Source: a virus (taxonomy: Duplodnaviria; Heunggongvirae; Uroviricota; Caudoviricetes). Taken from it: 21,109 nt of DNA. Both the position numbers and the translations under genes were made by a program. How positions within the stretch are numbered: position 1 is the first letter of the stretch; the number at the start of each line of letters is the position of its first letter. The notes beneath the pieces were generated by a model. The model worked only from the letters and a program-made list of their open reading frames with translations, was not told where the DNA came from and ran no database searches. Below, in pieces: positions 5,928 through 21,109 of this stretch. The stretch lies in the IMG/VR virus record IMGVR_UViG_2695420876_000008; one strand, given 5' to 3'.

Positions 5928-5945
5928 CCCCCCTTACCCCCCTTA
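5928..5945. repeat. Tandem CCCCCCTTA x2 inside a C-rich block (5914-5956) in the 410-bp intergenic region
   Basis: Direct reading: aat CCCCCCTTA CCCCCCTTA CCCTCTTCCCC. Confidence 0.6.
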
Positions 5946-6053
5946 CCCTCTTCCCCATAAAAACGTACTACTTCCCTAGTACACATGAGGAGTTGGGTCA
6001 GTTGGTTGCCAACCTGAACAGGCACCTTTAAGCCTGCTTCTGTTCGGGTACCT

Positions 6054-6362: not shown

Positions 6363-6612
6363 ACAAGCCCTTCACCTCCCCCGTGCGCGCTAAGCTTGGA
6401 TGTGGAAAAAGCTCTGGTAGGTCTGGCCGAAATTCATACGCTTGGATCTTTCCGTCGACAGCTGCAACCAATAACGGCACAAATTCTGGTGAAATCTTGT
6501 TCTTGCAGTTCAACCAATCGCAGACTGTTGACTGGGCCTTTCCGCATCGCTTGGCTAAGGCTTGCTGACTTCCAAGAATCTCAATAGCTTTCTCTATGGC
6601 TTTATGTTTCAT
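6325..6612 (-). CDS. Cro-like repressor (YdaS-type HTH)
   Basis: MKHKAIEKAIEILGSQQALAKRCGKAQSTVCDWLN...AYEFRPDL resembles the YdaS/Cro-like HTH pattern as recalled. Start chosen at ATG 6612 with SD AGGAG 8 nt upstream, not the track's 6663. Divergent from the CI-like gene. Confidence 0.75.
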   Translation of the reverse strand: MKHKAIEKAIEILGSQQALAKRCGKAQSTVCDWLNCKNKISPEFVPLLVAAVDGKIQAYEFRPDLPELFPHPSLARTGEVKGLYVPELRSDRDAI

Positions 6613-6634
6613 AATCGCATCTCCTATTGAACGC

Positions 6635-6663
6635 ATAATAACAACAGGAAAAGCGATATTCAA
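6635..6663 (-). promoter_or_regulatory. Candidate pR-like promoter for the Cro-like operon
   Basis: Minus strand: -35 TTGAAT (plus 6658-6663), 17-nt spacer, -10 TATTAT (plus 6635-6640), about 20 nt upstream of the cro SD. Confidence 0.4.
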
Positions 6664-6679
6664 CGTTAAACATAGAATA

Positions 6680-6699
6680 TTTATCGGAAAGCCGATAAA
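6680..6699. promoter_or_regulatory. 20-bp perfect palindromic operator candidate, TTTATCGG-AAAG-CCGATAAA
   Basis: Perfect 8-bp inverted arms with 4-bp spacer between the divergent cro-like and cI-like genes. Confidence 0.55.
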
Positions 6700-6731
6700 C
6701 TAGCCAAGATAGAGAGGGGAGGAAAATCGCA

Positions 6732-7424
6732 ATGACATTTTCAGAACGACTTGATTTAGCTATGCGCAACGCAAAATTTACGCAAGGTAGGCTGGCCAAA
6801 GAAGTGGGTATGGCTCAGTCCAGTGTTAATCAACTACTTAACAAAGCCAACGGTTCCAGAAAAACAGTCGAAATAGCAAAAGTTTTGGGCGTTAACCCGG
6901 AATGGCTCGCATCGGGTGTTGGCCCAATGGAAATCGTGACCTCTGCAGACTCACACCAAATACGTAACATTTCTGAAGATTGGGTTACTGATTCGTATGT
7001 CGTGGATGTTTTAGACATCAGATATAGTTGCGGACCTGGTAGTTATAACTCTGATTTTCCTGATATTGTCAGATCTATAGCGATAGAACCAGGATACGCA
7101 TCAAGAGTTTTTGGCGGCAGACCAGCATCAGCAATCAAAGCAATAAACGCCCACGGCGACAGTATGAAAGGCACAATAGACCCTGAAGACTTGGTATTTG
7201 TAGATGTATCAGTTCGCACATTTAATGGTGATGGTATATACGCCTTTACATACTCTGGAACATCGCACATCAAAAGACTTCAAAAAATCAAAGATACTCT
7301 AACGGTGATATCTGACAACCCAGCTTACAAGGATTGGGCTATCGAACCGGAAGACTTCGAACAACTTCACATTGACGGAAAAGTAATTGTCAGTTGGCCT
7401 ATGACACTACACCGTTTTGCATAA
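6732..7424 (+). CDS. CI-type prophage repressor (N-terminal HTH + C-terminal LexA/S24 autopeptidase domain)
   Basis: HTH segment QGRLAKEVGMAQSSVNQL; S24 catalytic motifs GDSM and HIKRL; SD GGAGG 9 nt upstream. Confidence 0.9.
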   Translation: MTFSERLDLAMRNAKFTQGRLAKEVGMAQSSVNQLLNKANGSRKTVEIAKVLGVNPEWLASGVGPMEIVTSADSHQIRNISEDWVTDSYVVDVLDIRYSCGPGSYNSDFPDIVRSIAIEPGYASRVFGGRPASAIKAINAHGDSMKGTIDPEDLVFVDVSVRTFNGDGIYAFTYSGTSHIKRLQKIKDTLTVISDNPAYKDWAIEPEDFEQLHIDGKVIVSWPMTLHRFA

Positions 7425-7442
7425 GCAAAAATCATTTAACCC

Positions 7443-7468
7443 GCCCACTCTTAAGTGGGCTTTTTTTT
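7443..7468 (+). terminator. Intrinsic terminator after the repressor gene
   Basis: GCCCACT-ctta-AGTGGGC hairpin followed by T8. Confidence 0.7.
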
Positions 7469-7484
7469 GGGAAAAAATCGATAA

Positions 7485-7518
7485 ACCGATTGACAGGTGA
7501 AATCGGTAAACCTATTAT
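7485..7518 (+). promoter_or_regulatory. Candidate pL-like sigma70 promoter overlapped by an operator-like inverted repeat
   Basis: -35 TTGACA (7490-7495), 17-nt spacer, -10 TATTAT (7513-7518); inverted repeat ACCGATT (7485-7491) / AATCGGT (7501-7507); half-sites related to the 6680 palindrome. Confidence 0.5.
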
Positions 7519-7567
7519 CTTGACATAGGTATCGAACTCACCAAAGCAATTATAGAGGATGAGAAAA

Positions 7568-7978
7568 ATGTCATCGTATATGGGATTACCAACAAATCAG
7601 CACGATGCTCTTGAGAATATTCAGCTCTTAGTAGGGACTGGTGCACTACTGTATAGCAGCAATAACCCTGAGTTAATTGAACTTGCCAGCTCCATCCTGG
7701 CTGTAACTCAAAAATATAGCCTCACCGCGTCACGTTTATGCAAACAAAATTTAGCTATTAATTCCCAGAATCGGATTCGCACCCAACGCGAAACCTGCGG
7801 CTTAACAACCGCCGAACTCGCTAGGCTGCTCGATCTCGATGAAGAAATTATCATCCAGTGGGAGAGCGGAGAGTACGAACCAACCATCAGCATGCTTATC
7901 CCTCTGGCTAATGTTCTTGGCTGTGATCCAATGTTGTTATTGACTGATGCTTATAAACAAAATCAGGAGGAAGCATAA
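7568..7978 (+). CDS. HTH_XRE-domain protein (C-terminal HTH, uncharacterised N-terminal domain); first gene after the pL-like promoter
   Basis: C-terminal LTTAELARLLDLDEEIIIQWESGEYEPTISMLIPLANVLG is a Cro/C1-type HTH. Start at ATG 7568 preferred (SD AGAGGA upstream); the track's 7559 is in frame. Confidence 0.65.
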   Translation: MSSYMGLPTNQHDALENIQLLVGTGALLYSSNNPELIELASSILAVTQKYSLTASRLCKQNLAINSQNRIRTQRETCGLTTAELARLLDLDEEIIIQWESGEYEPTISMLIPLANVLGCDPMLLLTDAYKQNQEEA

Positions 7979-7979
7979 G

Positions 7980-8171
7980 ATGAAAATGTTCAAAGGCCTT
8001 ACCAACGAACCGGAGACAACTTTTCATCACATTGCCGTACTGCTTGAAGCGGGGTTAATCATTTCGGCTTCCGGTGATGAAGAATGTGATGAACTTTCGG
8101 ATGATATCTTTTTACTGGCACAACAATACGCCAGAAGCGCATGCGATGCATTTAAGGAGCAAAGAACATGA
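7980..8171 (+). CDS. Hypothetical small acidic protein (63 aa)
   Basis: ATG 7980 with SD AGGAGG about 10 nt upstream (shorter than the track ORF); stop overlaps the next start (ATGA). Confidence 0.5.
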   Translation: MKMFKGLTNEPETTFHHIAVLLEAGLIISASGDEECDELSDDIFLLAQQYARSACDAFKEQRT

Positions 8172-8359
8172 AAACTCCATTAAATATTCTTGAGGAAGTG
8201 GCAGCACAAATAAAAGAGAATACATCAATGCTTGAATTTATATTTAAGAATTCGCCCGACTCAGGAGAGACAGACGATTATTTATGTTGCCTCATTCGCT
8301 CCATGAATAAAACCTGTGAAATGGCTTACGCGTATATCGACACACTGCGCAACGAATAA
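8168..8359 (+). CDS. Hypothetical small protein (63 aa)
   Basis: ATG 8168 with SD AAGGAG 9 nt upstream; translationally coupled to the previous ORF. Confidence 0.55.
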   Translation: MKTPLNILEEVAAQIKENTSMLEFIFKNSPDSGETDDYLCCLIRSMNKTCEMAYAYIDTLRNE

Positions 8360-8543
8360 AGAAAACTCAATAAACAATCACCCATAAAAACATAACGGTC
8401 TCTGGTCGGGAATTTCCACAACCTGAAAATGGTGGTGATGCATGAAAAACAGAAGTGCTTATAAAACCGCATTATTAATGGCTAATGCAGGATACTGGTC
8501 AGTTGCAATACTGTTTCTCAGGAAAGCATACGGGAAATAACAA

Positions 8544-8903
8544 ATGACACATGAACCCATTAATACATATCGTCGCCGTATAGCTGTTGCGGCACTCCAT
8601 CGAATAAAACGTAAAACAGGTGGTAATCTGCTTATTGTTGACCTTCCTGATGGGAACATTACGACCATAGAAATAACTGAACAGTTTATAAACCAGTTGC
8701 TGTTACGCTTCGAAGGTATTACCCGTGGTGAATTGGGCCGGGTGGAGGGTGAAACCGAAATCCACACTGCATACCAGAATGCTATCGGGATTAATCAACA
8801 TACTGAATACCTGACTGAAACCGGAAAGTTAATTATAGACAACCTTTTTCAAGAGATTATTGATTACGCGAAAGAAAAATATATCAGCGGAGGAATTAAC
8901 TGA
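8544..8903 (+). CDS. Hypothetical protein (119 aa)
   Basis: ORF with weak SD; coupled to the next ORF. Confidence 0.5.
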   Translation: MTHEPINTYRRRIAVAALHRIKRKTGGNLLIVDLPDGNITTIEITEQFINQLLLRFEGITRGELGRVEGETEIHTAYQNAIGINQHTEYLTETGKLIIDNLFQEIIDYAKEKYISGGIN

Positions 8904-9118
8904 TGGCTAATTTATCCCCTGTATCTGTTGTGCACGAAAAAGTGCAGATCGTTATGACAATTGAAAATGGCCAAGTCACAGGTGTCTGCAAAGTCCGCGA
9001 TGGCGAGCTGATTGCCAGCATGGATACATTCATACGGCTGGCAGAAAGAGCGGGGTATCAGATAACAGCACCTGCTCAGGAGGAAACCGGTGGCATTAAC
9101 AGCAACACGCATTCCTGA
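8903..9118 (+). CDS. Hypothetical protein (71 aa)
   Basis: ATG 8903 overlaps the upstream stop (ATGA-type coupling); SD GGAGGA 9 nt upstream. Confidence 0.5.
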   Translation: MANLSPVSVVHEKVQIVMTIENGQVTGVCKVRDGELIASMDTFIRLAERAGYQITAPAQEETGGINSNTHS

Positions 9119-9304
9119 GCGGATCCACCGGCAGGCATTGCAGGTCCTGTTGTTGTACCGATGCCGACGGATATTTCCGCATCGGATACAGCGCACCGGA
9201 TATCTCAGTCTGAAGGTTAACCGTCGCTGGCGGCTGTTATCGAAAGACGACGGCCGGAACTGGGAAGTAATGAGTCATGAACGTTATTCGGGAGAAATAA
9301 AGAA

Positions 9305-9697
9305 ATGATCGACAACCGCACCGCCAGCACCATTGACCAGGCATTACAGAAACATGATACACCCGTCGGCCCGTTATTTTTTGTAACACGCCACGGAAGA
9401 ACAAAAAAATGCCTCACCCGAAAAACGGCAATTCGTTACCTAGCATTCTTTATGACCACCCGCGCTTTTGAACGTTCAGGATTCCGACAACGCTATCCTG
9501 ACAAGCGTTTTATCTTCAACAGGAATGAGATATGGAAACGTGGAGAATCAACCACAGAGTATACCCGCGCACACCAGCGAACAATCAGACGACTGCGCAG
9601 ACTCATCGCCAGGAAACAGTATACAGAAAAATGGTTCAGAAAATATGACACATGGAGCGCCGGATATTACGAACTGATGGCAACAAAACCATTCTGA
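9305..9697 (+). CDS. Hypothetical basic protein (130 aa, Arg/Lys-rich C-terminus)
   Basis: ORF MIDNRTASTIDQ...; SD GGGAGA about 11 nt upstream. Confidence 0.45.
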   Translation: MIDNRTASTIDQALQKHDTPVGPLFFVTRHGRTKKCLTRKTAIRYLAFFMTTRAFERSGFRQRYPDKRFIFNRNEIWKRGESTTEYTRAHQRTIRRLRRLIARKQYTEKWFRKYDTWSAGYYELMATKPF

Positions 9698-9757
9698 CGT
9701 AAACGAAATTAACCATGACGCAATTAAATAAGGCAAGCCGAATACATCAGGAGGACC

Positions 9758-9946
9758 ATGAACATTTATTTCAGAATAGTTATATCACTGGCAATTATCA
9801 CATGTATTTACGGATTAATCGTTCCGGCCCTCATATCAATGAAGGATACGGTAGCAGTGATTTCTGGCTTTGCTCTGGCGTGTCTGACCCCGCCCTGCAT
9901 TTATGCCATTTATAAGGGTCTTTCTTTTTCTAAGGATAAAAGATGA
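9758..9946 (+). CDS. Small membrane protein (62 aa, two predicted TM helices), first gene of the SPFH operon
   Basis: Strong SD AGGAGG 4-6 nt upstream; hydrophobic segments IVISLAIITCIYGLIVPALI and VISGFALACLTPPCIYAIY; stop overlaps the SPFH start (ATGA). Confidence 0.6.
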   Translation: MNIYFRIVISLAIITCIYGLIVPALISMKDTVAVISGFALACLTPPCIYAIYKGLSFSKDKR

Positions 9947-10770
9947 AAAAATTACTTTTTGCTTTAGCCCTTGTTCTGCCGACCATTGGCCTTGTCGGTT
10001 GCGATCGCGTTGAGCCTGGTAATGTGGGCATCAAAGTAAACAAACTGGGCGACGATAAAGGCGTCGGTGAAGTGGTCGGTGTTGGGCGCTACTGGACGGG
10101 ATGGAACACTGAGGTTTACATCTTCCCGACCTTTAAGCAGATGAAGACCTACGATGATCCATTCAGTTTCCAGATGAGTGACGGTACAACCATCGGCTAT
10201 CACATCGGCGTGGCCTACAAAGTTGATCCATCCAAAGTTACCACAGTCTTTCAGACCTACCGCAAAGGCGTGGACGACATTACCGACACCGACCTGCGCC
10301 AGAAGATAGCCGACGCACTCAACCGACTGGCCAGCAAAATGACCACCGACAAATTTATCGACGGCGGCAAGTCTGAGCTGCTGGATGCAGCTCTTAAAGA
10401 CATTCAGGAAGAAATGACGCCCATCGGTATTCAGGTAATGAGCCTCTCATATGTGGGTAAGCCGGAGTACCCACCTACTGTTATCGACAGCATTAATGCC
10501 AAAGTCACGGCGAACCAGAAAACCCTGCAACGCGAGCAGGAAGTAAAACAGCGCGAAGCGGAAGCCAACATGTTGCGCGCGGAAGCTGCCGGACAGGCAG
10601 ATGCGATTCGCACAAAAGCCCAGGCCGAAGCCGATGCTATTCGTTTACGCGGTGAAGCTCTGCGCCAGAACCCCGGTGTTATGGAGCTGGAAGCCATCAA
10701 CAAGTGGAACGGTACACTGCCGCAATACATGACCAGCGGTGCCAACACACCATTTATTCAGGTTAAGTAA
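9943..10770 (+). CDS. SPFH/band-7 (stomatin/prohibitin-like) lipoprotein
   Basis: Lipoprotein signal MKKLLFALALVLPTIGLVGC (lipobox LVGC); SPFH-like core followed by an Ala/Glu/Gln-rich coiled-coil tail (EQEVKQREAEANMLRAEAAGQADAIRTKAQAEADAIR); SD AAGGA. Confidence 0.85.
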   Translation: MKKLLFALALVLPTIGLVGCDRVEPGNVGIKVNKLGDDKGVGEVVGVGRYWTGWNTEVYIFPTFKQMKTYDDPFSFQMSDGTTIGYHIGVAYKVDPSKVTTVFQTYRKGVDDITDTDLRQKIADALNRLASKMTTDKFIDGGKSELLDAALKDIQEEMTPIGIQVMSLSYVGKPEYPPTVIDSINAKVTANQKTLQREQEVKQREAEANMLRAEAAGQADAIRTKAQAEADAIRLRGEALRQNPGVMELEAINKWNGTLPQYMTSGANTPFIQVK

Positions 10771-10813
10771 TACATATGCCCGGTATTACACGCCGGGCTG
10801 TCTGGAGATAAAA

Positions 10814-11563
10814 ATGAATATTGTAACCATCAACAACAAACAGTTTCCGGTAATCGAATATCGCGGTCAGCGTGTTGTGACATTTGCAATAATTGATGAC
10901 GTCCACCAGCGCCCGGAAGGTACCGCCCGTGCTGCGTTTAACCGCAACCGTTCTCACTTTATCGAAGGGGTGGATTTTCTTGAAATGACTGCGGACGTAA
11001 TACGTACGGAGTCACTTTCTGATGCCTTTGCCGCGCGAACTGCCAAAGGGATCATTCTTTTCGAGTCTGGTTACCTGATGTTGACGAAGCCTTTTAACGA
11101 TGCTCTTGCATGGCAGGTTCAGCGCGAACTGGTTAACAGCTATTTCCGAACTCACGCGCCGCTGACGGAAATGGAGATGATCGCTGCAATGGCCGCCGAT
11201 GCCGTTCGCCAGCAGAAGCGCCTGAGTCATGTTGAAGAGAAGATCGAAACGGTCACCAAAGCTGTGGAGAACATCAAACGCGGCACAATGCGCACCGGAT
11301 ATGTCGGTTACCGCCAGGTGGTAGCCAAAAGCGGAATGAGTGACGCCAAGTGTCGGAATCTGGTCAACGCCTACCACATCCCTACCGACACGCACGAATT
11401 TATGACTCCGGACGGTCTGTTGTCTCGCAGGGCTGTCGTCGAGCTTGAGACATTTATGGCGGCGTTCCACCAAATGATGTCAGAGGCTGAACCACGCGGC
11501 ACACGCTGGTATCACCCGAAGATGGGGCTTTTTCAGGTAATCGGATGGGAGGATAAAGCATGA
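10814..11563 (+). CDS. ORF6N-domain phage regulatory protein (antirepressor-like N-terminus)
   Basis: N-terminus FPVIEYRGQRVVTFAIIDDVHQRPEGTARAAFNRNRSHFIEGVDFLEMT fits the ORF6N pattern as recalled; ATG 10814 with SD TGGAGA. Confidence 0.7.
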   Translation: MNIVTINNKQFPVIEYRGQRVVTFAIIDDVHQRPEGTARAAFNRNRSHFIEGVDFLEMTADVIRTESLSDAFAARTAKGIILFESGYLMLTKPFNDALAWQVQRELVNSYFRTHAPLTEMEMIAAMAADAVRQQKRLSHVEEKIETVTKAVENIKRGTMRTGYVGYRQVVAKSGMSDAKCRNLVNAYHIPTDTHEFMTPDGLLSRRAVVELETFMAAFHQMMSEAEPRGTRWYHPKMGLFQVIGWEDKA

Positions 11564-12128
11564 TCATCCAGTCAAAACTTATTCGCGCCGCTCTGGTGTG
11601 CGCTGCTAAAAACGACGTTCGTTATTACCTGAACGGTCTTCACATCACGCCAAAACATATTGAGGCAACCAATGGTTTCGTAGCACTGCGCATGACTCAC
11701 GGCATCCGGACGAAGAAAAACATCATTGTCCAGTTCGAAGGTGGCGTCCCGGCCAAAGCCGAAACGACAGAGCTGATTTTTAGTAAAGAGCCGATCCTGT
11801 TCATCGCGACCAGTTTCAGCGCCGGCTGTCCATTACCGGCATTAAATTGGTGGACGGTTGTTTTCCGGATTTGGAACGCATCATTCCGAAAAAATTTGAC
11901 CTCTGTACACACCCGGTGATCCAGGCGGGTTACCTGAGTTATCCAGAGAAGATGTTTGGTCGTGAGCGTAAATTTATTCCCGTCCAGTTACGTTCCTCCG
12001 GTGACGGGCAAGCGGTCAGAATTCAGTTTGATTCCATCATCAACTCAATGTATGGCAATCCTGAATTTGTTGTGATGCCTTGTCGTGATCATGGCGATTT
12101 CAATGTGGCTCAGGAGCATCCGGAATGA
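11560..12128 (+). pseudogene. Sliding-clamp (DnaN domain II-III)-like mini-clamp gene, split by a -1 frame break around 11817-11835
   Basis: Frame A (11560-11919) contains DVRYYLNG and ATNGFVALRM; frame B (open from 11787 to 12128) contains IKLVDGCFPDLERIIPK and ends EFVVMPCRD. These align in order with E. coli DnaN segments DVRYYLNGM, ATDGHRLAV, KLVDGRFPDYRRVLPK and AAYVVMPMRL (from memory). Strong SD GGGAGG at the start. Confidence 0.6.
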
Positions 12129-12163
12129 AAATCGAATACCAGGACGCCGCAGGAGGTGAATCA

Positions 12164-12247
12164 ATGAGCTGGCCTGATGCAATCGTAACTCTGGGGGTGG
12201 TATTCGCAGTAGCGTTTGTTGTGTTCTCAATTTGTCGATGGGGATAA
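12164..12247 (+). CDS. Candidate small hydrophobic peptide (27 aa, single TM)
   Basis: ATG 12164 with SD AGGAGG 8 nt upstream; MSWPDAIVTLGVVFAVAFVVFSICRWG; below the ORF-track size cutoff. Confidence 0.3.
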   Translation: MSWPDAIVTLGVVFAVAFVVFSICRWG

Positions 12248-12251
12248 CCAC

Positions 12252-12494
12252 ATGTTCGCTTTGATTCAACGCGGTCAGATATACACGGACAGAGCCGGAT
12301 ACCCCGTGGTGATTACTCGCATCACTGAGCACTCAGTGTTCTTTCGACGGATGGACGGACGATCCGGGCGGGTACGCATTGGTGAGTTAAACTGCCTGTT
12401 CGAACATATTGACCACCAGGAGTACCGCAAAATTCTCGCGGACACTGAGCAGGAAAAGCACCTGAAAAAATTACGAGCCATAAAAAGGAAGTAA
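12252..12494 (+). CDS. Hypothetical protein (80 aa)
   Basis: ATG 12252 (MFALIQRGQIYTDRAGYPVV...) inside the longer track ORF; SD GGGGA upstream. Confidence 0.5.
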   Translation: MFALIQRGQIYTDRAGYPVVITRITEHSVFFRRMDGRSGRVRIGELNCLFEHIDHQEYRKILADTEQEKHLKKLRAIKRK

Positions 12495-12497
12495 AGA

Positions 12498-12644
12498 ATG
12501 AATAAAGCATTTGAACAATGGGTCCACCAGCGTTACGGCAATCGCTATGACCTGACGCGAGATGTTGACGGCTTCTACTGTCGTGAAGTTGTGAAGCGAA
12601 TGTTTGACGTGTGGTGCCACTGCCGTGGGCTGAGTGTTATGTGA
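12498..12644 (+). CDS. Hypothetical small Cys-rich protein (48 aa)
   Basis: ATG 12498 with SD AAGGAAG 8 nt upstream; MNKAFEQWVHQRYGNRYDLTRDVDGFYCREVVKRMFDVWCHCRGLSVM. Confidence 0.4.
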   Translation: MNKAFEQWVHQRYGNRYDLTRDVDGFYCREVVKRMFDVWCHCRGLSVM

Positions 12645-12652
12645 GGTGATGT

Positions 12653-12862
12653 ATGGGGCTGGATTGCGTGCCTATATCAACCTACTGCCGCGACGCGGGA
12701 GAAACGGTTGATGCCGTTAACAAACGGATACAAAGAGGAATATGGAAAGAAGGGGTTCATGTATTAAAAGTCGACGGAGTTAAAGAACGCTGGGTCGACT
12801 TAATAGAGGTTTCAAAATGGGCAAGAAAGAACAAGGATTATTATCTCTGCCAAGAGGAGTAA
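12653..12862 (+). CDS. Excisionase-like protein (Xis candidate)
   Basis: Small ORF immediately upstream of and overlapping the integrase start (classic xis-int arrangement); SD GAGGTGA upstream. Confidence 0.5.
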   Translation: MGLDCVPISTYCRDAGETVDAVNKRIQRGIWKEGVHVLKVDGVKERWVDLIEVSKWARKNKDYYLCQEE

Positions 12863-13942
12863 CTATTCGTAAGCATAAAACTGCTTCAACACTAGTTATC
12901 ACTTTCACATATAAAGGGGTTCTTTGCAGGGAGCCCCTGTCTCGGCTTGAGGCAAATACACGTGGTATTAAATATGCTGAGCGCCTGCTAGGGGAGATAC
13001 AAAATCAGATCGCCAGCGGAACGTTTGAATATGCGAAATATTTCCCCAGTTCCAAAAAACTGGAGTTATTCGGTGTAGTAAAGAAAACCAAAAATATTAA
13101 GTCCTATCTTGATGAATACCTGAAAATTTGCATGAACCGCAATCTGTCGCCGTCAACCATTGGCGGTTACGAAAAATGTCTATCAGCACTATCAGAACTA
13201 CATAAACTACATGTAACAGAATTGACGCCTGCGGTACTAAAAAATTGGATAGCCAGCCGAAAAACTAAGCTGAAAACAATCAGGAATAACCTGTCATTTC
13301 TGCGCAGCGCCATTGATGAGGCTGTAACTGATGGCCTGTTGACTATTAACCCGGTAACTCTTGTCAGCGCCAGCCGGTATCACGTGGTCGACAGGTGCCA
13401 TATATCAGCACTGCAAGTATCAGGAATGGCAGAATCTGTTCCGCTTCGCCTTCAATACAGGGCTACGCAGCTCTGAGCTATGCGCATTACGTTGGACCGA
13501 TATCGACTTTATAGGTAATACAGCGCACATACAGGCGGCCAGTGTCGTAGGGGTACTTAAAGGCACCAAGACAAAAGCCGGTACCCGTAAGGTGGAGCTG
13601 AACAGTGAGGCGCTGGCGGCCCTGCAGGCGCAGAAGCAATACACCTTTATGAAAAGTGAGTTCATATTCAGCGATCCGAAAACGGGAGATCCCTGGACGA
13701 ACGCCGACGCTATCCGTAAAAAAGCATGGGTGCCGACCCTGAAAAAAGCTGGTGTGCGCTACCGTAACCCGTACCAGACGCGCCACACATTCGCCACCAG
13801 ACACATTAGCCAGGGTGTAAACCTTTTCTGGCTTGCCGGGCAGATGGGGCATAAGGGGCCGGAAATGCTGTTCCGCAATTACGGTAAATACCTGGCTGAA
13901 TACGACGGGAAAACCGCAATGGAATCTGGAATGAAGAAGTGA
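12817..13942 (+). pseudogene. Lambda-family tyrosine integrase, split by a +1 frame break around 13365-13400
   Basis: ORF 12817-13476 has an arm-binding-type N-terminus (LPRGVTIRKHKTASTLVITFTYKGVLCREPL) and core-binding region; ORF 13361-13942 in the +1 frame has the catalytic domain (FAFNTGLRSSELCALRWTDIDF, YQTRHTFATRH, GHKGPEMLFRNYGKYL). Confidence 0.8.
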
Positions 13943-13955
13943 TTTGAAGAAAAAA

Positions 13956-13978
13956 CCCGGCAAATGCCGGGTCTTTTT
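13956..13978. terminator. Bidirectional intrinsic terminator between convergent int and the 255-aa gene
   Basis: A-run, CCCGGCA-aa-TGCCGGG hairpin, then TCTTTTT. Confidence 0.6.
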
Positions 13979-13983
13979 GATGG

Positions 13984-14751
13984 TTATTCTGTCGCGCCAC
14001 CTATCGAAACATAATCATGAAATTGATCGTCAATGAGTCGGTCCTTACAGATAACATGTACAATGTGACGACAACAGTTTTCATCATCATACGCACGACC
14101 CCAGCGAACAATCTCATCTACAGACAGATCATTCGCACTCCATGGCAAAGTACCTGAAACGCCACGCGCACCTGGACCAAGTATGTCCATAAATTTCTTC
14201 GTGCGTGAATTGTAGATCCGTACCTCGGCAATTCGAATGATGCTACTAGCCCAAAGAGCACCACCGGCAATACTTTGAATGTTATCGCAGATGAGAAACT
14301 CATGCTTTCGCGCAAGCATTTTATAGATCTCACGCGCCAAACCTGCTGATTGGAAATCCTGTGCGATAACAGCGCTTTTCACTTGCTTTCCGGTCATCAT
14401 CTGACCGTTCTCTTCGATAAAATTAAAGTCGTTGAACTGTATACGACCTATTCTTATCGTTTTGTTATCGTCTACCATATCAAGACCCAAGAGGGTATTG
14501 ACCAGATCCTGCATTGGAACCTTCGAATCAAGAAGGTCACTGCCATAGTCTAAAAAAAAGTCGTCGGTGGAACATCCCAGTTGATACACATCCAAGTAGT
14601 ACTGAAACTCACCAGAACTGACAATGTACTCATCAGCCCTCAGTAAGCCAGCCTCGGCAGTGAAAAAATAGAATGACTCAATAAGACGTTTTTCGCCAAA
14701 TGGCGTAATGTTCAAGTCCTTGTTATATGAAGGTATTAACGCAGGAGCCAT
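13984..14751 (-). CDS. Hypothetical protein (255 aa), second gene of the int-proximal cargo cassette
   Basis: ORF with ATG 14751, 11 nt after the stop of the upstream 113-aa gene; no family recognised. Confidence 0.6.
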   Translation of the reverse strand: MAPALIPSYNKDLNITPFGEKRLIESFYFFTAEAGLLRADEYIVSSGEFQYYLDVYQLGCSTDDFFLDYGSDLLDSKVPMQDLVNTLLGLDMVDDNKTIRIGRIQFNDFNFIEENGQMMTGKQVKSAVIAQDFQSAGLAREIYKMLARKHEFLICDNIQSIAGGALWASSIIRIAEVRIYNSRTKKFMDILGPGARGVSGTLPWSANDLSVDEIVRWGRAYDDENCCRHIVHVICKDRLIDDQFHDYVSIGGATE

Positions 14752-14762
14752 TCAGCAACCTT

Positions 14763-15104
14763 TTAATGGTAGTTAATTTCCCTGTAGTTCTTCTGCATGT
14801 ATAGAGCAATTGCCGCTTCAATTTTCTTCAGCAGATTACTGCTTACATACTGAGGATACTGATCTGCTGGCTTCACAACATAGCGCAATTTTTCTTTGTT
14901 CATGGCGATCTCAGCGAACGGGATCACGTCACCGTCACGAACCTCATTGTTCAATGTCACAATAAACAGCTGACGTGCCGGGGAGACACGATCACTCAGT
15001 CTTCTCACGAAGAACTCGTTTGCTGTGTTTGAGTCAACAAAAGAACTGACGAGTTGAGTCCGACGCTCAATCGTCTGTATCGATCTTCTCGCTACTGTTC
15101 TCAT
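14763..15104 (-). CDS. Hypothetical protein (113 aa), first gene of the int-proximal cargo cassette
   Basis: ATG 15104 with SD GAGGAG 8 nt upstream; no family recognised. Confidence 0.6.
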   Translation of the reverse strand: MRTVARRSIQTIERRTQLVSSFVDSNTANEFFVRRLSDRVSPARQLFIVTLNNEVRDGDVIPFAEIAMNKEKLRYVVKPADQYPQYVSSNLLKKIEAAIALYMQKNYREINYH

Positions 15105-15120
15105 GCTAGTCTCCTCAACA

Positions 15121-15244
15121 CTTCACTGGCTGTGCAGTGAAGGTACAAAAAGCCACTGATGATAACAGCGTCATCAGTGGCCCTTGATGGTGATAACCGC
15201 AGTTACCTAAATAGTATGATATTACCTTACGGGTAATTCTTCAA
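15121..15244 (-). promoter_or_regulatory. Structured leader of the cargo cassette: candidate promoter, terminator-like hairpin with U-tract, and a second hairpin abutting the SD
   Basis: Minus strand: -35 TTGAAG (plus 15239-15244), 17-nt spacer, -10 TATCAT (plus 15216-15221); 10-bp perfect stem CCACTGATGA/TCATCAGTGG (15153-15180) followed by CTTTTT; second stem CTTCACTG/CAGTGAAG (15121-15142) directly upstream of the SD. Confidence 0.4.
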
Positions 15245-15434
15245 CGATTGCTCTGAATTGAATAGTCTTGAAGTGCTATGAACAGCACAAAACAGCGCTA
15301 ATCACCGCCCCAGTGGCGCCTAAACACTTCAAAATGTTGGACAGAATCAGGACGTTAGAGGTACTACAATATGCACGTAAAATGCACGTGAGGTATTTTA
15401 AATTAGAAAAATCATTAATATTCAATTGGTTAAG

Positions 15435-15474
15435 AATTTTTCGGATACGGGTTCAACTCCCGCCAGCTCCACCA
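15435..15474 (+). other. ssrA (tmRNA) 3'-terminal fragment: T-arm plus acceptor 3' strand plus CCA; att-site duplicate, not an intact gene
   Basis: ...CGGATACGGGTTCAACTCCCGCCAGCTCCACCA matches my recollection of the E. coli tmRNA 3' end; no tmRNA 5' body (GGGGCTGATTCTGG...) is present upstream. Confidence 0.6.
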
Positions 15475-15508
15475 CTTTTTAGTTGTTTGAAGTTCAATGA
15501 AGTCTACT

Positions 15509-15542
15509 AAGCCCACACAGCACAAGCTCTGCGGGCTTTTTT
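15509..15542 (+). terminator. Candidate intrinsic terminator downstream of the ssrA fragment
   Basis: AAGCCC...GGGCTT imperfect long hairpin followed by T6. Confidence 0.4.
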
Positions 15543-15639
15543 ACGTCTATTGTCGTCCAGTGAGAATTGCTGAGAACTACGAGTTATGGCACCCTGAATG
15601 GGACCCACTAAGAAGGGTCCAAAAACCGAGGGTCCCAAA

Positions 15640-16869
15640 ATGGCAAAAATCGCTAAGAAGCTCACTGACACTGAAATCAAAAGCACCAAGCCAGCCGATA
15701 AAGAAATCAACTTGTTTGACGGTGATGGTCTGATTCTACGAATCGCTCCTTTGGCGAAAGGAGGCAAGAAAAATTGGTATTTCAGGTATGCAGTACCAGT
15801 GAGCAAGAAAAGAACCAAAATGAGCCTTGGGACATATCCTCACCTTACCCTTGCAAGAGCCAGAGCCTTACGTGATGAATATCTCTCCTTTCTGGCAAAT
15901 GGTGTTGATCCCCAAATCCATAACAACGATAAGGCGAAGGCATTAAAGAGTGCTACTGAGCACACTCTCCAAGCCGTAGCGCGGAAATGGTTAGATGAGA
16001 AGGTAAAGACATCAGGTATCTCACAAGACCATGCAGCAGACATCTGGCGCAGCTTAGAGAGAAATGTCTTTCCCGGTCTGGGTAATGTCCCTATCAATGA
16101 GATCCGACCTAAGCTCTTAAAACAACACCTTGATCCTATTGAGCAACGAGGCGTATTGGAAACTCTACGCCGTATCATTTCACGTCTGAATGAAATCTTC
16201 CGGTGGGCAGCTACTGAAGAACTTATTGAGTTCAACCCGGCTGACAACCTTGGTCAAAGATTCAGTAAACCAAAAAAGCAAAATATGCCTGCCCTTCCCC
16301 CAAGCGAATTGCCAAGGTTTATGGAATCTTTGACGAATGCGTCAATCCGGTTGGAAACACGTATGCTAATTGAATGGCAATTGTTGACATGGGTTCGTCC
16401 GGGTGAAGCCGTTCGCGCAAGGTGGTCTGATATTGATACAACCAACAGCATTTGGAACATTCCTGCTGATTTCATGAAAATGAAAAAGCTTCACAAAGTT
16501 CCTTTGAGTAAAGAAGCTTTGCGCATCCTTGAATTAATGAAATCAATAAGTGGGCATAGAGAATGGGTTTTCCCCAGCATAAAAGCGCCTCTTAATCATA
16601 TGCATGAACAAACAGCCAACGCAGCTATCATCCGAATGGGGTTCGGAGGCGAGCTTGTAGCTCACGGTATGCGTTCTATTGCACGAACAGCGGCAGAGGA
16701 GTCTGGTAAATTCAGAGCTGAAGTTCTTGAGGCAGCGCTTGCCCACTCGAAAAAAGATGAAATTATCGCAGCATACAATCGTGCAGAATATCTGATAGAG
16801 CGACAGAGTTTGATGCAATGGTGGAGTGATTACGTTCAAGCTCAAAGATCAAATGCTCTGGTAGCCTAA
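15640..16869 (+). CDS. P4-family tyrosine integrase (IntA/CP4-57-like, tRNA/tmRNA-site class)
   Basis: MAKIAKKLTDTEIKSTKPADKEINLFDGDGLILRIAP... N-terminal arm-type domain and C-terminal catalytic domain (HGMRSIARTAA, ...AYNRAEYL); lies directly downstream of the ssrA 3' fragment; start at ATG 15640 with SD GAGGG, not the track's 15598. Confidence 0.85.
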   Translation: MAKIAKKLTDTEIKSTKPADKEINLFDGDGLILRIAPLAKGGKKNWYFRYAVPVSKKRTKMSLGTYPHLTLARARALRDEYLSFLANGVDPQIHNNDKAKALKSATEHTLQAVARKWLDEKVKTSGISQDHAADIWRSLERNVFPGLGNVPINEIRPKLLKQHLDPIEQRGVLETLRRIISRLNEIFRWAATEELIEFNPADNLGQRFSKPKKQNMPALPPSELPRFMESLTNASIRLETRMLIEWQLLTWVRPGEAVRARWSDIDTTNSIWNIPADFMKMKKLHKVPLSKEALRILELMKSISGHREWVFPSIKAPLNHMHEQTANAAIIRMGFGGELVAHGMRSIARTAAEESGKFRAEVLEAALAHSKKDEIIAAYNRAEYLIERQSLMQWWSDYVQAQRSNALVA

Positions 16870-16907
16870 GTATCAGAATAGCTAATATAATCCTGAAGGT
16901 AAAGAAA

Positions 16908-17324
16908 ATGGAAACCCTATTCAAAGTTTTTGAAAAATTTAGTTCCAGACCACTTTTTTTTATTTTTTTCGGACTCTCACTTTGTGAATTTTTTCAGAAA
17001 CAATCTGTTCTGATGAATCCATCAGCAGATAACATCGCGAAATTATTCGCAGCCATGATATTAGTTGTTTTTTTTACTTGGGGATTTGAATGGCTAATCT
17101 TCAAGTTCAATGTAAACCTTGAACCTCATGATCAAGGCGATATTGGACCAACAATTGGAACGGCTACTTTAGCTGTATACTTAGTTTATGCCTTTCACTT
17201 TCTCAGTGAAAATCCTGAAGCATTAAATTTAAAGTTATTAACTAACTCTGGCTTTATATACAGCACAACTCTATTATTATTCTCATTAGAATGCATGAAG
17301 CTTAGAAGACTTAAACAAAAATAA
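16908..17324 (+). CDS. Hypothetical multi-pass membrane protein (138 aa), AT-rich island
   Basis: ORF with several hydrophobic helices (PLFFIFFGLSLCEFF, LFAAMILVVFFTWGFEWLIF, ATLAVYLVYAFHFL, IYSTTLLLFSL). Confidence 0.6.
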   Translation: METLFKVFEKFSSRPLFFIFFGLSLCEFFQKQSVLMNPSADNIAKLFAAMILVVFFTWGFEWLIFKFNVNLEPHDQGDIGPTIGTATLAVYLVYAFHFLSENPEALNLKLLTNSGFIYSTTLLLFSLECMKLRRLKQK

Positions 17325-17395
17325 ACAACATCATTGTGATGATAAATATAAAATAGGCATGGCGAAAAAAAATCACCACGCCTAAAATATAATAA

Positions 17396-19144
17396 TTATG
17401 GTAGCATCATTGATACATAATCCACACCAATCCTTGAGCTATACTGAGACGCTATAGCCTGATATCTTTCTGCATAACCAGTTCTCAGTTGAGATTTAAG
17501 TTTGAGTCGGACAGGAACATTTTGCACGTTGCCATCCATATTACTTAAAAACACGGCAGAAATAATATTTTTTTCTTCGCCATCAACTGTTGTTCCATGA
17601 TTCAACACCACCATATAATCAACAACAGGAAGCGTTTTATCCCCTTCGAAAATAGAGAGATATTTTCTTTGATTTTTATGCATTACATATATATATTTCG
17701 AATGTTCAGCAAATGGCAATGCTTTACTCTGACTGGCGTTAAAAAGCTCCAGAACTTTAATGAGCCTGTGCGGACTTAATCTTACATGGTGAGGGTCGTT
17801 ACCCTGAGTAGGAACCAAATCACATGCCGCAGATACACATAAATACCATTTGTTCGACTCTGTATCAAAGAAAATAGTGCCAGTAGAAATATGACCATCT
17901 TCAAAATTCTTTGAAGACAAATTCATATTTAAAGCATGATACATTTCGTGATAAGTATCATTATTTGATGGCAGATCCATTTTTGAAGAGCAATATTGGA
18001 GCAATGCAGCAACTCCGCTGTTAGCGTATTCATTTGAATAGCTATCAAAAACACTTTTGATAAATTCATCCAGCGTATTATTATTTTTAAGTCTTTGATA
18101 AAGCTCTTCTGATAAATTACCAAATACAAAGTCAATATTTCTACATCTAATATCAGGCGAGTCTGATTTTAATATCTCATTTAACCACGCAGCTTGACCG
18201 TAATGATCGTTAGCCAAATGATTTACAAAAGATAAAGCCTCAGCTTCGATTGCATTCTGAATTTCAGATTTTATTAACTGATAATAAGATGGTTTCCATT
18301 CAATGAGAGAATCATTGAGAGTTTGCCAAATCCTATCTCCATCGTTTTCATGATCATCTTGAACCTTATGAAATAGGGAGACAAAGATATTACCACATTG
18401 AATCCATTTTACTCCGCTTTCATCACCCCGAATGACATTGCCAGATGTGTTGCTAGAAATAATTGCATTTCTAGACACAGCATATTCTGCAATCATTTTT
18501 GCAATGAAGTTTTTATCCTTTTGTTCCTCCAACACAGCATCATCATGTATTAATCTTTTAATTCTTCTACAAGGCTTACTGTCTTTAATATAGGCTATTG
18601 TTTCATCTCTTGTGAGAGCTTTATTACCATTATCATTTAAGTTCGGTAATACAACGTCTTCCCAATAACTTTGGACATCTTCATTATCGTAGTCAATGAT
18701 CAAGCTGTTGATATCCAGAGCACCTTTGAGAGTCGATGATATCTGCATCCAAACCGTTTCTAAATTCTCTCTAGTATATATTACAATCATATTTAAATGA
18801 TCGGAGTCTTTCAAATCTTGTAATAGTTTAAGTGTTTTATCAGGTGCATTATTATCAAGATGATAATCTACAATAATAAGATCTGATTTTCTAATCCGAT
18901 CCACATCGAAATTAACAGAACCATTGTCAACATCACAAATCATATTTTTAGATTGAAAAAAGCTCTCAAGAGTAGCGGCTCGTTTAGATGAGTCAATTTT
19001 GTTGTAGTCTAAATCAACTTCGTTATTCAACGCCCTGATTGATTCAGAATACGTCAGAAAATCGTCATCAATCATGACAACGGAACGAATTGCATTTTCG
19101 CAGAAAGTTTTCTGGACAAGAGAATTATAATTTGCCACTGTCAT
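17396..19144 (-). CDS. Receiver (REC-like) domain protein fused to a ~430-aa C-terminal domain of unknown function; no DNA-binding output domain recognised
   Basis: N-terminal REC-like motifs VVMIDDD, DLIIVDYHL, MIVIYT; large uncharacterised C-terminal region. Start at ATG 19144 preferred (SD GGAG upstream; one nt after the kinase stop) over the track's 19162. Confidence 0.7.
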   Translation of the reverse strand: MTVANYNSLVQKTFCENAIRSVVMIDDDFLTYSESIRALNNEVDLDYNKIDSSKRAATLESFFQSKNMICDVDNGSVNFDVDRIRKSDLIIVDYHLDNNAPDKTLKLLQDLKDSDHLNMIVIYTRENLETVWMQISSTLKGALDINSLIIDYDNEDVQSYWEDVVLPNLNDNGNKALTRDETIAYIKDSKPCRRIKRLIHDDAVLEEQKDKNFIAKMIAEYAVSRNAIISSNTSGNVIRGDESGVKWIQCGNIFVSLFHKVQDDHENDGDRIWQTLNDSLIEWKPSYYQLIKSEIQNAIEAEALSFVNHLANDHYGQAAWLNEILKSDSPDIRCRNIDFVFGNLSEELYQRLKNNNTLDEFIKSVFDSYSNEYANSGVAALLQYCSSKMDLPSNNDTYHEMYHALNMNLSSKNFEDGHISTGTIFFDTESNKWYLCVSAACDLVPTQGNDPHHVRLSPHRLIKVLELFNASQSKALPFAEHSKYIYVMHKNQRKYLSIFEGDKTLPVVDYMVVLNHGTTVDGEEKNIISAVFLSNMDGNVQNVPVRLKLKSQLRTGYAERYQAIASQYSSRIGVDYVSMMLP

Positions 19145-19145
19145 A

Positions 19146-19982
19146 TTAGAACTCCACTCCATTGAACTGGATCACAAAATTAGCGCCATCTTTTATTAAA
19201 TAGTTATCGCCTTCATCAGGTTCTGAATACCATATTTTATGATGTGCAACAGCAAGGTTTTCTCGACATAGATACAGACCTACCCCATGTCCATTTGCTC
19301 TTTTGCTATAAAATAGTTCAAATAGTCGCGGGATATCATCGGTATCAATTGCCGGACCAGAATTTGCTATGATAACCAAAGAATTCACAAAACCAATCTT
19401 TATGAGCCTATTATTTGACAGACTGACCCAATACATTGCATTGTTGATAATATTAGTAAAAACAGGATAGATCCTTGATGGTATATCTGTTATTGCGATT
19501 TGCTTAAACTCTTCACTAAATTCAATAGTTATTCGTTGCCGTTCGAAACGCTCCCCAAAGAACTTCAGGACATAATCCATGATATTTTTTCCAGTTATTC
19601 TCTGCCTGGATTGATAACCTGATATTTTCAAAGGTGATAAGAAACGTATTTGTTGAGTAAGCGATCTGTGAGCATTTAACGCCAATGAAAAACCAGGGTG
19701 TTCTTTTACAGAAGTAGGAAGAGAGTTTAGTCCTCTGGTTACCATAGAATCCATTTCTTCAAGTTCATGAGATATTATCTCAACACTAATACCTAACTGT
19801 GCAAGCGCGTTTAAACTTTTAGCTTTTTCTTCAAAATATGAGCGTTCTTCTTCAGATAATGAGAATGCTGAATCTAAGTTTATACCTTCAAATAATCTAT
19901 CGAGACCTTTTATTATTGATTGATATTTGAAAGTTAGGGTATCAACTGACTCAACATATAAACTATCGAGCAAATTAAACAC
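19146..19982 (-). CDS. Histidine kinase core (DHp H-box + HATPase_c), cytoplasmic; start uncertain
   Basis: H-box ISHELEEMDS; N-box YPVFTNIINNAMYW; G1-like IANSGPAIDTDD; G2 GHGVGLYL. No ATG near the 5' end (track start is GTG); the frame stays open upstream to 20111. Confidence 0.7.
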   Translation of the reverse strand: MFNLLDSLYVESVDTLTFKYQSIIKGLDRLFEGINLDSAFSLSEEERSYFEEKAKSLNALAQLGISVEIISHELEEMDSMVTRGLNSLPTSVKEHPGFSLALNAHRSLTQQIRFLSPLKISGYQSRQRITGKNIMDYVLKFFGERFERQRITIEFSEEFKQIAITDIPSRIYPVFTNIINNAMYWVSLSNNRLIKIGFVNSLVIIANSGPAIDTDDIPRLFELFYSKRANGHGVGLYLCRENLAVAHHKIWYSEPDEGDNYLIKDGANFVIQFNGVEF

Positions 19983-20059
19983 ATTTTCAATTTGTGAATC
20001 ATTATCTATTGAATCAACAACTGATATAGTTTTAGCATAATAATCACTTCGATCAACCT

Positions 20060-20863
20060 TTATTTCATCGGCCCATTTTTTAAAAGAGAATGTATCTTCT
20101 CCTCTATCGTGTTATTAAACTTAGTTAGTTTAGAATTAATAATACCTTGATTTTTTTCAAGGTGATTTTTCGCTGACAATGAAGGCTCAAGTTTATTTAA
20201 TTCAGAATCAAGTTTATTAATTGCTAACTTCATTTGTAGAATATACGCAGAGAACTCATTAAATTTATCTCTGTAGTCTCTATATTTCTCTTCATACATT
20301 CCAAGTTTTGGAGGTTTGATAGGCGTTTTAATTTCACTGCGCAACGCATCTAAGTTTGTAAGATCACTGTCTATAATTTTAAGATAGTTTAAATCTAACG
20401 AACCATCAGTTTTATCAAGCTTAGTTTTCAGCCTTTTAACAGCCTCCAAGGAAGCATCAAGAACTGGTGTCTGATTCTTCAAAGCTTCTGAAAAACTTTT
20501 TTGTGTTGATTTTCGAGCTTGTTGTTGAGCAGATTTTCTTAACTCTTTTTCACGCTTAACTTGTTCTAAAAGCTCTTTACGGTCATCAGAACGTGAACCA
20601 AAAAATCTATCAGCAAGTTCAGTTAACAAATTAGATATAATAGTTTTCAGTTCTCTTGCAGCCTGGTTTCTTATGAATCCCTCTCTCCCCGACTTATCTT
20701 TCAGCTCTTTATTACTGGATTGAGTAATTCCAATATAACCAAAAATCCTTCTATTAGACCAATAATATCGCCCTGCATTCCATGAACGTCTTTCTTCTAT
20801 CTGGAAGAAATCATTATCTACTCGACCATAAGGTAATACTCTCAAGCTATCCCTAAAAATCAT
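20060..20863 (-). CDS. Coiled-coil-rich protein (267 aa); probably the N-terminal/linker part of the adjacent sensor kinase, itself likely 5'-truncated
   Basis: ORF starts at ATG 20863, but the frame is open for 42 more codons upstream, up to the IS3 junction at 20985; K/E-rich heptad-like sequence; separated from the kinase frame at the run CTTTTAAAAAATGGG (20071-20085). Confidence 0.5.
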   Translation of the reverse strand: MIFRDSLRVLPYGRVDNDFFQIEERRSWNAGRYYWSNRRIFGYIGITQSSNKELKDKSGREGFIRNQAARELKTIISNLLTELADRFFGSRSDDRKELLEQVKREKELRKSAQQQARKSTQKSFSEALKNQTPVLDASLEAVKRLKTKLDKTDGSLDLNYLKIIDSDLTNLDALRSEIKTPIKPPKLGMYEEKYRDYRDKFNEFSAYILQMKLAINKLDSELNKLEPSLSAKNHLEKNQGIINSKLTKFNNTIEEKIHSLLKNGPMK

Positions 20864-20984
20864 TAGTCCTGCATACTTTTTGGCCTTAAGATCAAAGTGG
20901 GAATGTTCACGTTCAGTATGTGATGTATTTTGTGAAAGGAATTCAAACGTTCCTATCTGAAGCTCAAATGGGCCGACCCCTGCG

Positions 20985-21109
20985 TGATCCTACCCACGTA
21001 ATATGGACACAGGCCTAAGCGAGGTTCTTGTTTTCAAATTGTTCCGGACTGAGGCCGCCACACCAACTGTGCCGCCGCCACCGATTGTAATCACATTCGA
21101 TATAATTAA
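20985..21109 (-). mobile_element. IS3-family insertion sequence, terminal ~125 bp (terminal inverted repeat TGATCCTACCCACGTAATATGGACAC...); remainder beyond the right edge
   Basis: Terminal repeat begins at 20985; minus-strand 21109-21015 encodes ...[30 protein letters not shown], which matches my recollection of the IS3 transposase (InsF/OrfB) C-terminus; abrupt GC shift relative to the AT-rich island. Confidence 0.7.
21015..21109 (-). CDS. IS3-family transposase (OrfB/InsF-like), C-terminal 30 codons; 5' part beyond the window
   Basis: Hand translation of the minus strand gives [30 protein letters not shown] followed by TAG at 21017-21015. Confidence 0.65.

Follow-up and report, generated by a model that had tools for sequence, protein, structure and literature searches.

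The locus considered here raises the question of whether an open reading frame (ORF) that abuts an insertion sequence (IS) is the first gene of a cassette or what is left of a longer gene and, in the latter case, how the missing part was lost. The DNA in question, referred to below as the window, is a stretch of 21,109 nucleotides (nt) from a Caudoviricetes virus record (IMG/VR IMGVR_UViG_2695420876_000008). It ends within an IS3-family element, and next to this element, on the minus strand, lies an ORF of 267 amino acids (aa) belonging to a kinase cassette. Our reading, to which we give a probability of about 0.9, is that a deletion linked to IS3 cut off the first 376 codons of a 988-codon kinase gene, leaving a remnant that in the window is, moreover, frameshifted.

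A first-pass annotation of this DNA, made from its letters alone, had pointed out that the frame of the 267-aa ORF (20060-20863, minus strand) contains 42 stop-free codons ahead of its ATG, at 20864-20989, and that its earliest in-frame stop is the TAG at 20990-20992, within the terminal repeat of the element. Both statements are correct. Taken alone, the open frame is weak evidence, since by our own estimate 42 open codons would be found by chance in about 4-5% of cases in DNA of such composition; the final two of them (D and H) are made of IS3 bases. The decisive point is given by the 40 codons derived from the neighboring island (20864-20983), which correspond to residues 377-416 of a 988-aa homologue, P0003, with 40/40 identities by BLASTP. 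Furthermore, 988-aa proteins of Salmonella, Klebsiella and Serratia are 99% identical over 100% of a 612-aa query composed of the E. coli remnant and its 40 upstream codons. The window copy begins, by BLASTP, at residue 377 of 988, with 376 residues lost, and the principal conclusion of the first-pass annotation, that the IS marks the truncation of a longer gene, is borne out by these homologues.

The end of the IS is, to the base, the truncation point of this much longer gene. In a four-way junction alignment, the left flank reads ...CCCTGCG and is followed by IS3, the breakpoint position carrying an ambiguity of ±1 nt. The start assigned by PGAP to the 572-aa model of the E. coli protein is the ATG equivalent to 20863, downstream of this coding sequence. 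The change in guanine-plus-cytosine (GC) content that had been noticed at the IS end is real, although softer than described and gradual rather than sharp: the GC fraction is 0.33 in the 267-aa ORF and 0.34 in the whole cassette, 0.43 in the 121 nt from the ATG to IS3, and 0.48 in the IS3 end.

The uninterrupted homologues also give back the N-terminal domain that had been supposed missing. In P0003, Pfam recognizes HATPase_c_3 (residues 28-137), HEF_HK (772-830) and HATPase_c (878-969); the first of these, a GHKL domain, is missing from the window copy, which is a truncated member of the HEF_HK “group 1” architecture. The N-terminal 140 residues of the full-length kinase match HATPase_c_3, a likeness to the paraMORC GHKL ATPases, and this domain is exactly what the window has lost; the lost part thus includes the paraMORC-like GHKL domain in full. 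The article in which the family was described proposed it as the sensor (PMC8011034). In addition, residues 13-138 of P0003 match the BbrUII/HgiDII restriction enzymes (NCBIfam NF050001) with an E-value of 1.5e-13, at 50 bits against a family cut-off of 550, which hints that the intact kinase protein may be restriction-related.

The element at the end of the window is IS3 itself, entered by its right end. In 3,616 of the 5,426 complete E. coli genomes, features bearing the annotation “IS3-like element IS3 family transposase” match the portion contained in the window (20985-21109) at 125/125 nt, so that the family assignment made at first sight is correct and can be narrowed to IS3 of Escherichia coli (IS3 family, IS3 group; 1258 base pairs, bp). 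The visible 125 nt are the same as in that element; the C-terminus of orfB, the 39-nt right terminal inverted repeat (IRR) and the promoter motifs published for the right end all fall within them. The full element of 1258 bp occupies positions 7003-8260 of a genome with the same junction, that of strain OSUCMP42NDM (L002), in which the IRR and the left repeat (IRL) pair over 39 nt with 72% complementarity and with 1180 nt between them. The window contains the IRR alone of the two repeats, the IRL being known from L002; as in other IS3 copies, these repeats are imperfect, about 39 bp long and begin with TGA. Of orfB just the last 31 codons are present, the C-terminus being encoded by the minus strand of 21018-21109, and RefSeq labels the IS3 copies with an identical junction as a transposase with programmed frameshift. 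IS3 normally generates 3-bp target duplications. None is seen here, the flanks being GCG/AGA in L002 and GCG/GAA in L011 (strain PV16-126); a missing duplication is what is expected after an IS-linked deletion, and is no argument against the element being IS3.

Beyond the element, the first-pass annotation had proposed to look for the remainder of the gene, together with a 3-bp duplication. Neither is seen in the same-junction genomes: in all those examined (L002 and L011, and, from their coordinates, E2865, 503025 and 503440), IS3 borders on its other side the amylase pseudogene ygaQ, and in L002 its flanks are GCG and AGA. In L002, the left end of IS3 is followed by AGATAACATCTCTAAGG..., the right flank of the junction reading IS3|AGATAACATCTC... 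This flanking sequence is native ygaQ (an alpha-amylase pseudogene) in about 4,000 genomes, and it lies 1145 nt into the 2253-nt pseudogene of E24377A. The junction of the truncated kinase gene with IS3 (HK'::IS3) occurs in 484 of the 5,426 complete E. coli genomes (~9%) and the junction of IS3 with truncated ygaQ (IS3::'ygaQ) in 505; in the three genomes listing both coordinates (E2865, 503025 and 503440) they are 1258 bp apart. The genome closest to the window, that of O103:H2 PV16-126 (L011), is 99.9% identical over 14700-21109, and its gene order is prophage integrase, island integrase, 138-aa ORF, receiver gene, 572-aa remnant, IS3, 'ygaQ and glaH.

The junction bears the marks of an IS-linked deletion: the breakpoint is at the IS terminus, there is no duplication, unlike in the usual IS3 copy, and the flanks derive from loci that are not adjacent in other genomes. 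Hence, of the idea that the IS had inserted into a longer sensor gene, one part stands, since a longer gene was cut at IS3 with loss of its N-terminal domain, but the event is an IS3-linked deletion and not a simple insertion. Adjacent deletions of varied length are indeed produced by IS3 (PMC8860574), and IS copies without duplications originate by adjacent deletion or by inter-IS recombination (PMC11708052).

The truncated gene has, furthermore, been split. The 267-aa ORF had been taken for the first gene of the cassette; it is one gene together with the 278-aa ORF, and a 1-bp deletion lies between the two. The window remnant is 99% identical to residues 377-678 of P0003, and the 278-aa ORF is identical at 277/278 positions to residues 711-988, its GTG “start” being the internal codon V711. 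The latter ORF matches HEF_HK (PF19191; 6e-06, 27.1 bits with a cut-off of 24.1) and HATPase_c (PF02518; 7e-12, 46.1 bits): the order of HEF_HK (DHp-like, with a conserved His) and HATPase_c is kept, but both are out of frame with the upstream part in the window. Among 561 complete genomes with remnant DNA, all but four align over 1003 nt, versus 1002 in the window; three of the exceptions have the 1002-nt form of the window, and one an IS1 insertion. The form with a T7 run is a single 572-codon ORF annotated as “ATP-binding protein”, and the form with T6 gives the 267-aa and 278-aa pieces. The window shares the frameshift with strain OSUCMP42NDM, whose copy of the gene PGAP marks as frameshifted.

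A second homopolymer run has contracted as well: the spacer that separates the receiver gene from the 138-aa ORF reads A8 instead of A9 at 17364-17371. T6 and A8 are both found in OSUCMP42NDM, and neither in the closest genome, PV16-126. Because it co-occurs with this second change in an independent assembly, the T6 frameshift is probably a real lineage marker. Another sign of decay is seen in strain 99_0288 (NZ_CP074769.1), in which IS1 further interrupts the kinase remnant, in the stretch equivalent to window 19983-20984.

Altogether, the following course of events may be proposed. The complete kinase gene codes for a soluble GHKL ATPase of the paraMORC type joined to a histidine-kinase-like module (HATPase_c_3, a long helical region, HEF_HK and HATPase_c), and is part of a three-gene unit, with a C5 DNA methyltransferase and a Response_reg_2 receiver, on a mobilisable island integrated at ssrA. 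In the E. coli lineage, four things went with the IS3-linked deletion: roughly the first 1127 nt of this gene, that of the methyltransferase, what else the island contained on that side, and chromosomal DNA as far as 1145 nt into ygaQ. It would have been an adjacent deletion that started at one IS3 end or, alternatively, a recombination between two IS3 copies. The outcome was one IS3 between two unrelated truncated sequences, without target-site duplication. Further decay in the window, by a 1-bp deletion in the T7 run, has produced the 267-aa and 278-aa ORFs, while the outward promoter of IS3, P3R, points into the remnant and may transcribe it. Later, some lineages lost IS3 (O111 where the serotype is given) or eroded more of ygaQ (O103:H2).

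Several observations weigh against this reconstruction. The window ends 125 nt into IS3, and the other flank of its own copy is deduced from the genomes with an identical junction. The collections searched contained no pre-deletion intermediate, in which IS3 would simply be inserted into either the kinase gene or ygaQ while these were still intact; for this reason, an adjacent deletion and a two-copy recombination look alike, and the order of events is a reconstruction. In turn, T6 is a homopolymer change, which could in principle come from an assembly or sequencing error. Finally, no annotated copy that was inspected has a broken receiver gene, and in most genomes the 572-codon remnant is uninterrupted.

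Table 1. Features of the kinase remnant, of the IS3 end and of the adjoining island genes (window coordinates).
Feature	Position	Strand	Description
IS3 right end	20985..21109	-	cut off by the window end; transposase and truncated kinase gene read the same way
IS3 right terminal inverted repeat (IRR)	20985..21023		39 nt, TGATCCTACCCACG...; same letters in the window, L002 and L011
IS3 orfB 3' end	21015..21109	-	frame-2 translation from the window end; stop TAG 21017-21015
Published P3R promoter motifs	21036..21066	-	TTGGTG, 19 nt, CAATTT; directed outward from the IS toward the truncated gene
Second right-end signature	21084..21109	-	(T)TTAAT, 15 nt, TACAAT; first T of the -35 lies past the window end
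Breakpoint	20984..20985		island DNA ends at 20984 = nt 1128 of the 2967-nt full-length gene; IS3 starts at 20985
Coding sequence 5' of the first ATG	20864..20984	-	40 codons + 1 nt (residues 377-416); no RefSeq annotation
267-aa ORF	20060..20863	-	middle, largely helical part of the kinase (residues 417-678 of 988) and a 5-codon out-of-frame tail; no Pfam match
T6 run (A6 on the coding strand)	20076..20081		T7 in most genomes; the 1-bp deletion splits the remnant
278-aa ORF	19146..19982	-	C-terminal part of the kinase (residues 711-988): HEF_HK (DHp-like H-box) and HATPase_c catalytic domain
582-aa Response_reg_2 partner gene, intact	17396..19144	-	receiver domain, helical region, beta-rich C-terminal domain
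138-aa island ORF, conserved	16908..17324	+	no family match
Tyrosine integrase of the ssrA island carrying the kinase system	15598..16869	+	Pfam Arm-DNA-bind_3, Phage_int_M, Phage_integrase; NCBIfam NF007246, 440 bits

The state of the receiver gene and of the 572-codon ORF bears on whether the remnant still has a function. Since its GHKL domain and its partner methyltransferase are gone, it is most likely a dead relic, as the loss of domains suggests. Nevertheless, the IS3 end carries motifs that face it. Those of P3R were given for the IS3 right end, “3R(+)”, by Charlier 1982, in the lines quoted in PMC12095673, and the second signature corresponds to hotspots 14 and 15 of 3R(+) in that same paper. 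P3R has been described as outward-facing and “strong” (PMC8860574); on the other hand, wild-type 3R had no detectable activity in sort-seq, and a pause site in its last 50 bp halves expression (PMC12095673). A generic scan for sigma-70 promoters and terminators in 20600-21109, on both strands, returned nothing; for promoters it is uninformative here, because the motifs of the literature are non-canonical and one of them is cut by the window end. An outward promoter, which had been put forward as an alternative to the truncation, is compatible with it and is no rival to it, and from the motifs transcription of the remnant driven by IS3 is plausible. In the window, the kinase domains are out of frame in any case.

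Where the 572-codon ORF is uninterrupted, P3R might drive the GHKL-less kinase and the receiver as a working, methyltransferase-independent module. The outward motifs face the remnant with no terminator-like site between, ATG 20863 has an AGGA 3 nt upstream of it, and neither the receiver gene nor the DHp and catalytic domains have been lost. We nonetheless consider this improbable: the copies are at least 99% identical, so that their conservation says nothing on selection, and decay is seen, both in the frameshift of three genomes and the window and in the IS1 of strain 99_0288, to which the silence of the wild-type IS3 right end in sort-seq and the out-of-frame kinase domains of the window must be added. 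A broader version, in which P3R would keep the GHKL-less remnant and the intact receiver expressed, as a working stress or defence module independent of the methyltransferase, in ~9% of E. coli genomes, seems to us quite unlikely; if it were true, the IS3-linked deletion would have re-wired a kinase system instead of killing it. The C-terminal domain of the receiver protein has a weak resemblance to the MazF/CcdB toxins.

Returning to the origin of the junction, a simple insertion of IS3 would leave the 5' 1.1 kb of the kinase gene just past the IS and a 3-bp duplication on both sides. The window shows just 125 nt of IS3 and, as stated above, duplications are the rule for this element. However, 1258 bp on from the identical junction, ygaQ is reached in each of L002, L011 and E2865, and the flanks are GCG and AGA; moreover, neither the 5' part of this allele of the kinase gene nor its methyltransferase was found in complete E. 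coli genomes (n = 5,426). A synthetic junction query for IS3 simply inserted at that ygaQ site also matched none of these genomes. A simple insertion is, in consequence, very unlikely.

The deletion, rather than the insertion, could also have come first, independently of any IS, by joining the kinase gene to ygaQ, with IS3 inserted there later by chance or preference. Indeed, 70 complete genomes (O111 where the serotype is given) have an IS-free junction, ...CCCTGCG-CG-CATCTCTAAGG..., with the same exact kinase breakpoint and a 2-nt CG filler, but six native ygaQ nucleotides (AGATAA), still present next to IS3 in the IS3 form, are missing from it. It is this last feature that runs against such an order of events: having lost native sequence which the IS3 form retains, the IS-free form derives from the latter and not the reverse, and cannot be its ancestor. 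Its filler, the serotypes of the listed serotype-labelled strains, all O111, and a breakpoint placed exactly at the IS3 terminus point in the same direction, and we give this possibility very little weight.

The IS3-linked deletion has thus been followed by other changes at the same junction. In O103:H2 PV16-126, 19 more nt of ygaQ are missing beside the left end of IS3. The three junction states can be read at 8255-8280 of L002 (IS3 and full ygaQ flank), at 11040-11060 of L011 (19 nt more lost) and at 6995-7015 of L001. The IS-excision enhancer acts on IS3-family elements by promoting excision together with deletions from a few nucleotides upward, with end-joining, and has been reported from O111:H8 and O103:H2 (PMC9943667; PMC8860574). 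Both later patterns fit its activity, and it may have had a role here.

In this sense, the locus resembles the model of insertion, deletion and excision described for IS3 and the IS-excision enhancer (Kanai et al., 2022, PMC8860574; PMC11708052; PMC9943667). The endpoint lies at the IS end without duplication, as in that model, and the later variants agree with it, namely the extra 19-nt loss in O103:H2 and the loss of the IS with a few flanking bases in O111. Unlike the laboratory model, this is a natural chromosomal case, reconstructed by comparison and not seen in real time, in which no operon was created. It constitutes a clean natural example of what was shown in the laboratory, since among the sequenced lineages there are some that bear the IS, some that are further eroded and some that are free of it. 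Otherwise it is an ordinary, widespread IS-linked gene remnant, and no new kind of element or mechanism; its value lies mainly in this natural IS3 example and in a correction of annotation.

This correction concerns the start of the gene. Homologues sharing the ATG of the E. coli model, with nothing coding ahead of it, would plead against a truncation, and 572-aa database entries with the same internal ATG, 82-84% identical, seem to be such in Salmonella, Klebsiella, Pectobacterium, Yersinia, Morganella and Serratia. The DNA was read for two of these entries at three loci, two of Salmonella and one of Klebsiella, and upstream coding sequence is present at all three. In Salmonella L009 (3993-6983) and L010, the reading frame of the “572-aa” gene continues upstream, intact and without annotation, for 424 more codons; the resulting ORF of 996 codons shows 98% identity with a protein of 994 aa, and the under-called start leaves an unannotated gap of 1252 nt after the methylase gene. 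Three further loci have been reported as similar. In Klebsiella pneumoniae L012 (1734-4719), the upstream part is present and is frameshifted at codon 310. Neither of the two readable entries backs a native short architecture.

Accordingly, a native start at ATG 20863, giving a short HEF_HK and HATPase_c protein (“group 2” of Bellieny-Rabelo 2021) with IS3 in the intergenic DNA upstream, deserves hardly any credence, for although RefSeq models the E. coli protein as 572 aa from this ATG, six other genera have 572-aa entries and 34 of 222 family members are without HATPase_c_3 (PMC8011034), the 40 codons 5' of the ATG are identical to residues 377-416 of the 988-aa proteins and the extension is intact in both Salmonella loci and present, if frameshifted, in that of Klebsiella.

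The abundant truncated E. coli model may propagate this start, one 90% cluster of the 572-aa protein alone containing 2,075 sequences, and part of what has been published as the “group 2” architecture may be artefactual. The E. coli 572-aa “ATP-binding protein” (WP_001426837.1 and its relatives) is what is left of a paraMORC-type kinase of 988 aa, deprived also of its methyltransferase partner, and is better treated as a pseudogene remnant than as a natural short architecture.

As for the system to which the intact gene belongs, the closest description is that of the HEF_HK/Response_reg_2 pair and its C5 methyltransferases (Bellieny-Rabelo, Pretorius and Moleleki 2021, PMC8011034), with the same Pfam domains and the same adjacency of kinase and receiver; an upstream C5 methyltransferase is likewise found in the intact island. 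In contrast, the E. coli copy is without HATPase_c_3 and methyltransferase and would score as “group 2”, yet it is a truncation product. In the window, the Response_reg_2 gene adjoins the kinase gene, as is characteristic of the HEF_HK family. No experiment on autophosphorylation or phosphotransfer in this family was found in the literature searched.

A further likeness is offered by Ambrosia, an anti-phage system whose defence has been shown experimentally and needs the phospho-acceptor Asp (bioRxiv 10.1101/2025.09.30.679545). It also brings together in one cluster a methyltransferase, a histidine-kinase/HSP90-like ATPase and a receiver protein, its five genes encoding an XRE regulator, an N6-adenine methylase, a HATPase kinase, a receiver with wHTH (winged helix-turn-helix) output and an HNH nuclease. 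The intact island differs in having a C5 methylase and no adjacent XRE or HNH gene, and the output part of its receiver is helical and beta-rich, not wHTH. Compared by gene content and not by sequence, Ambrosia may be seen as the nearest tested analogue, and not a relative by membership, of the possible role of the intact island system. Among the models of PADLOC, the methylase alone found a match (Type II MTase models), with no family for the 138-aa ORF, the receiver protein or the kinase of 988 aa; a search of NCBIfam and of PDB sequences returned nothing for the receiver protein or the 138-aa ORF.

The intact island of Salmonella lies beside the tmRNA and comprises the integrase, the 138-aa ORF, the 582-aa Response_reg_2 gene, the 988-aa kinase gene, the C5 methyltransferase gene, which shares 20 nt with the start of the kinase gene, a relaxase and other integrase-like genes. 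E. coli keeps just the integrase-proximal part of it, the linked C5 methyltransferase being deleted. The ssrA island adjoins the tmRNA in L002 as it does in Salmonella. In the window, ARAGORN detects no tRNA or tmRNA; a 3' fragment of tmRNA is recognized at 15383-15474 (Rfam RF00023, 18.6 bits, E 2e-05), where the prophage gives way to the integrase of the island, and 15383-15542 also contains a partial IsrM-like match of 53 bits, far under the gathering score. This region is taken as an att-type remnant, which would place two elements in tandem at ssrA.

The remainder of the window (1-15474) is the early and regulatory part of a lambdoid prophage, with a Q antiterminator, a toprim protein, a DEAD/DEAH helicase, a LexA-like repressor, an SPFH protein, an ORF6N protein and its own integrase. 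This prophage is 99.9% identical to that of E. coli E110019, which has an extra IS3-family insertion.
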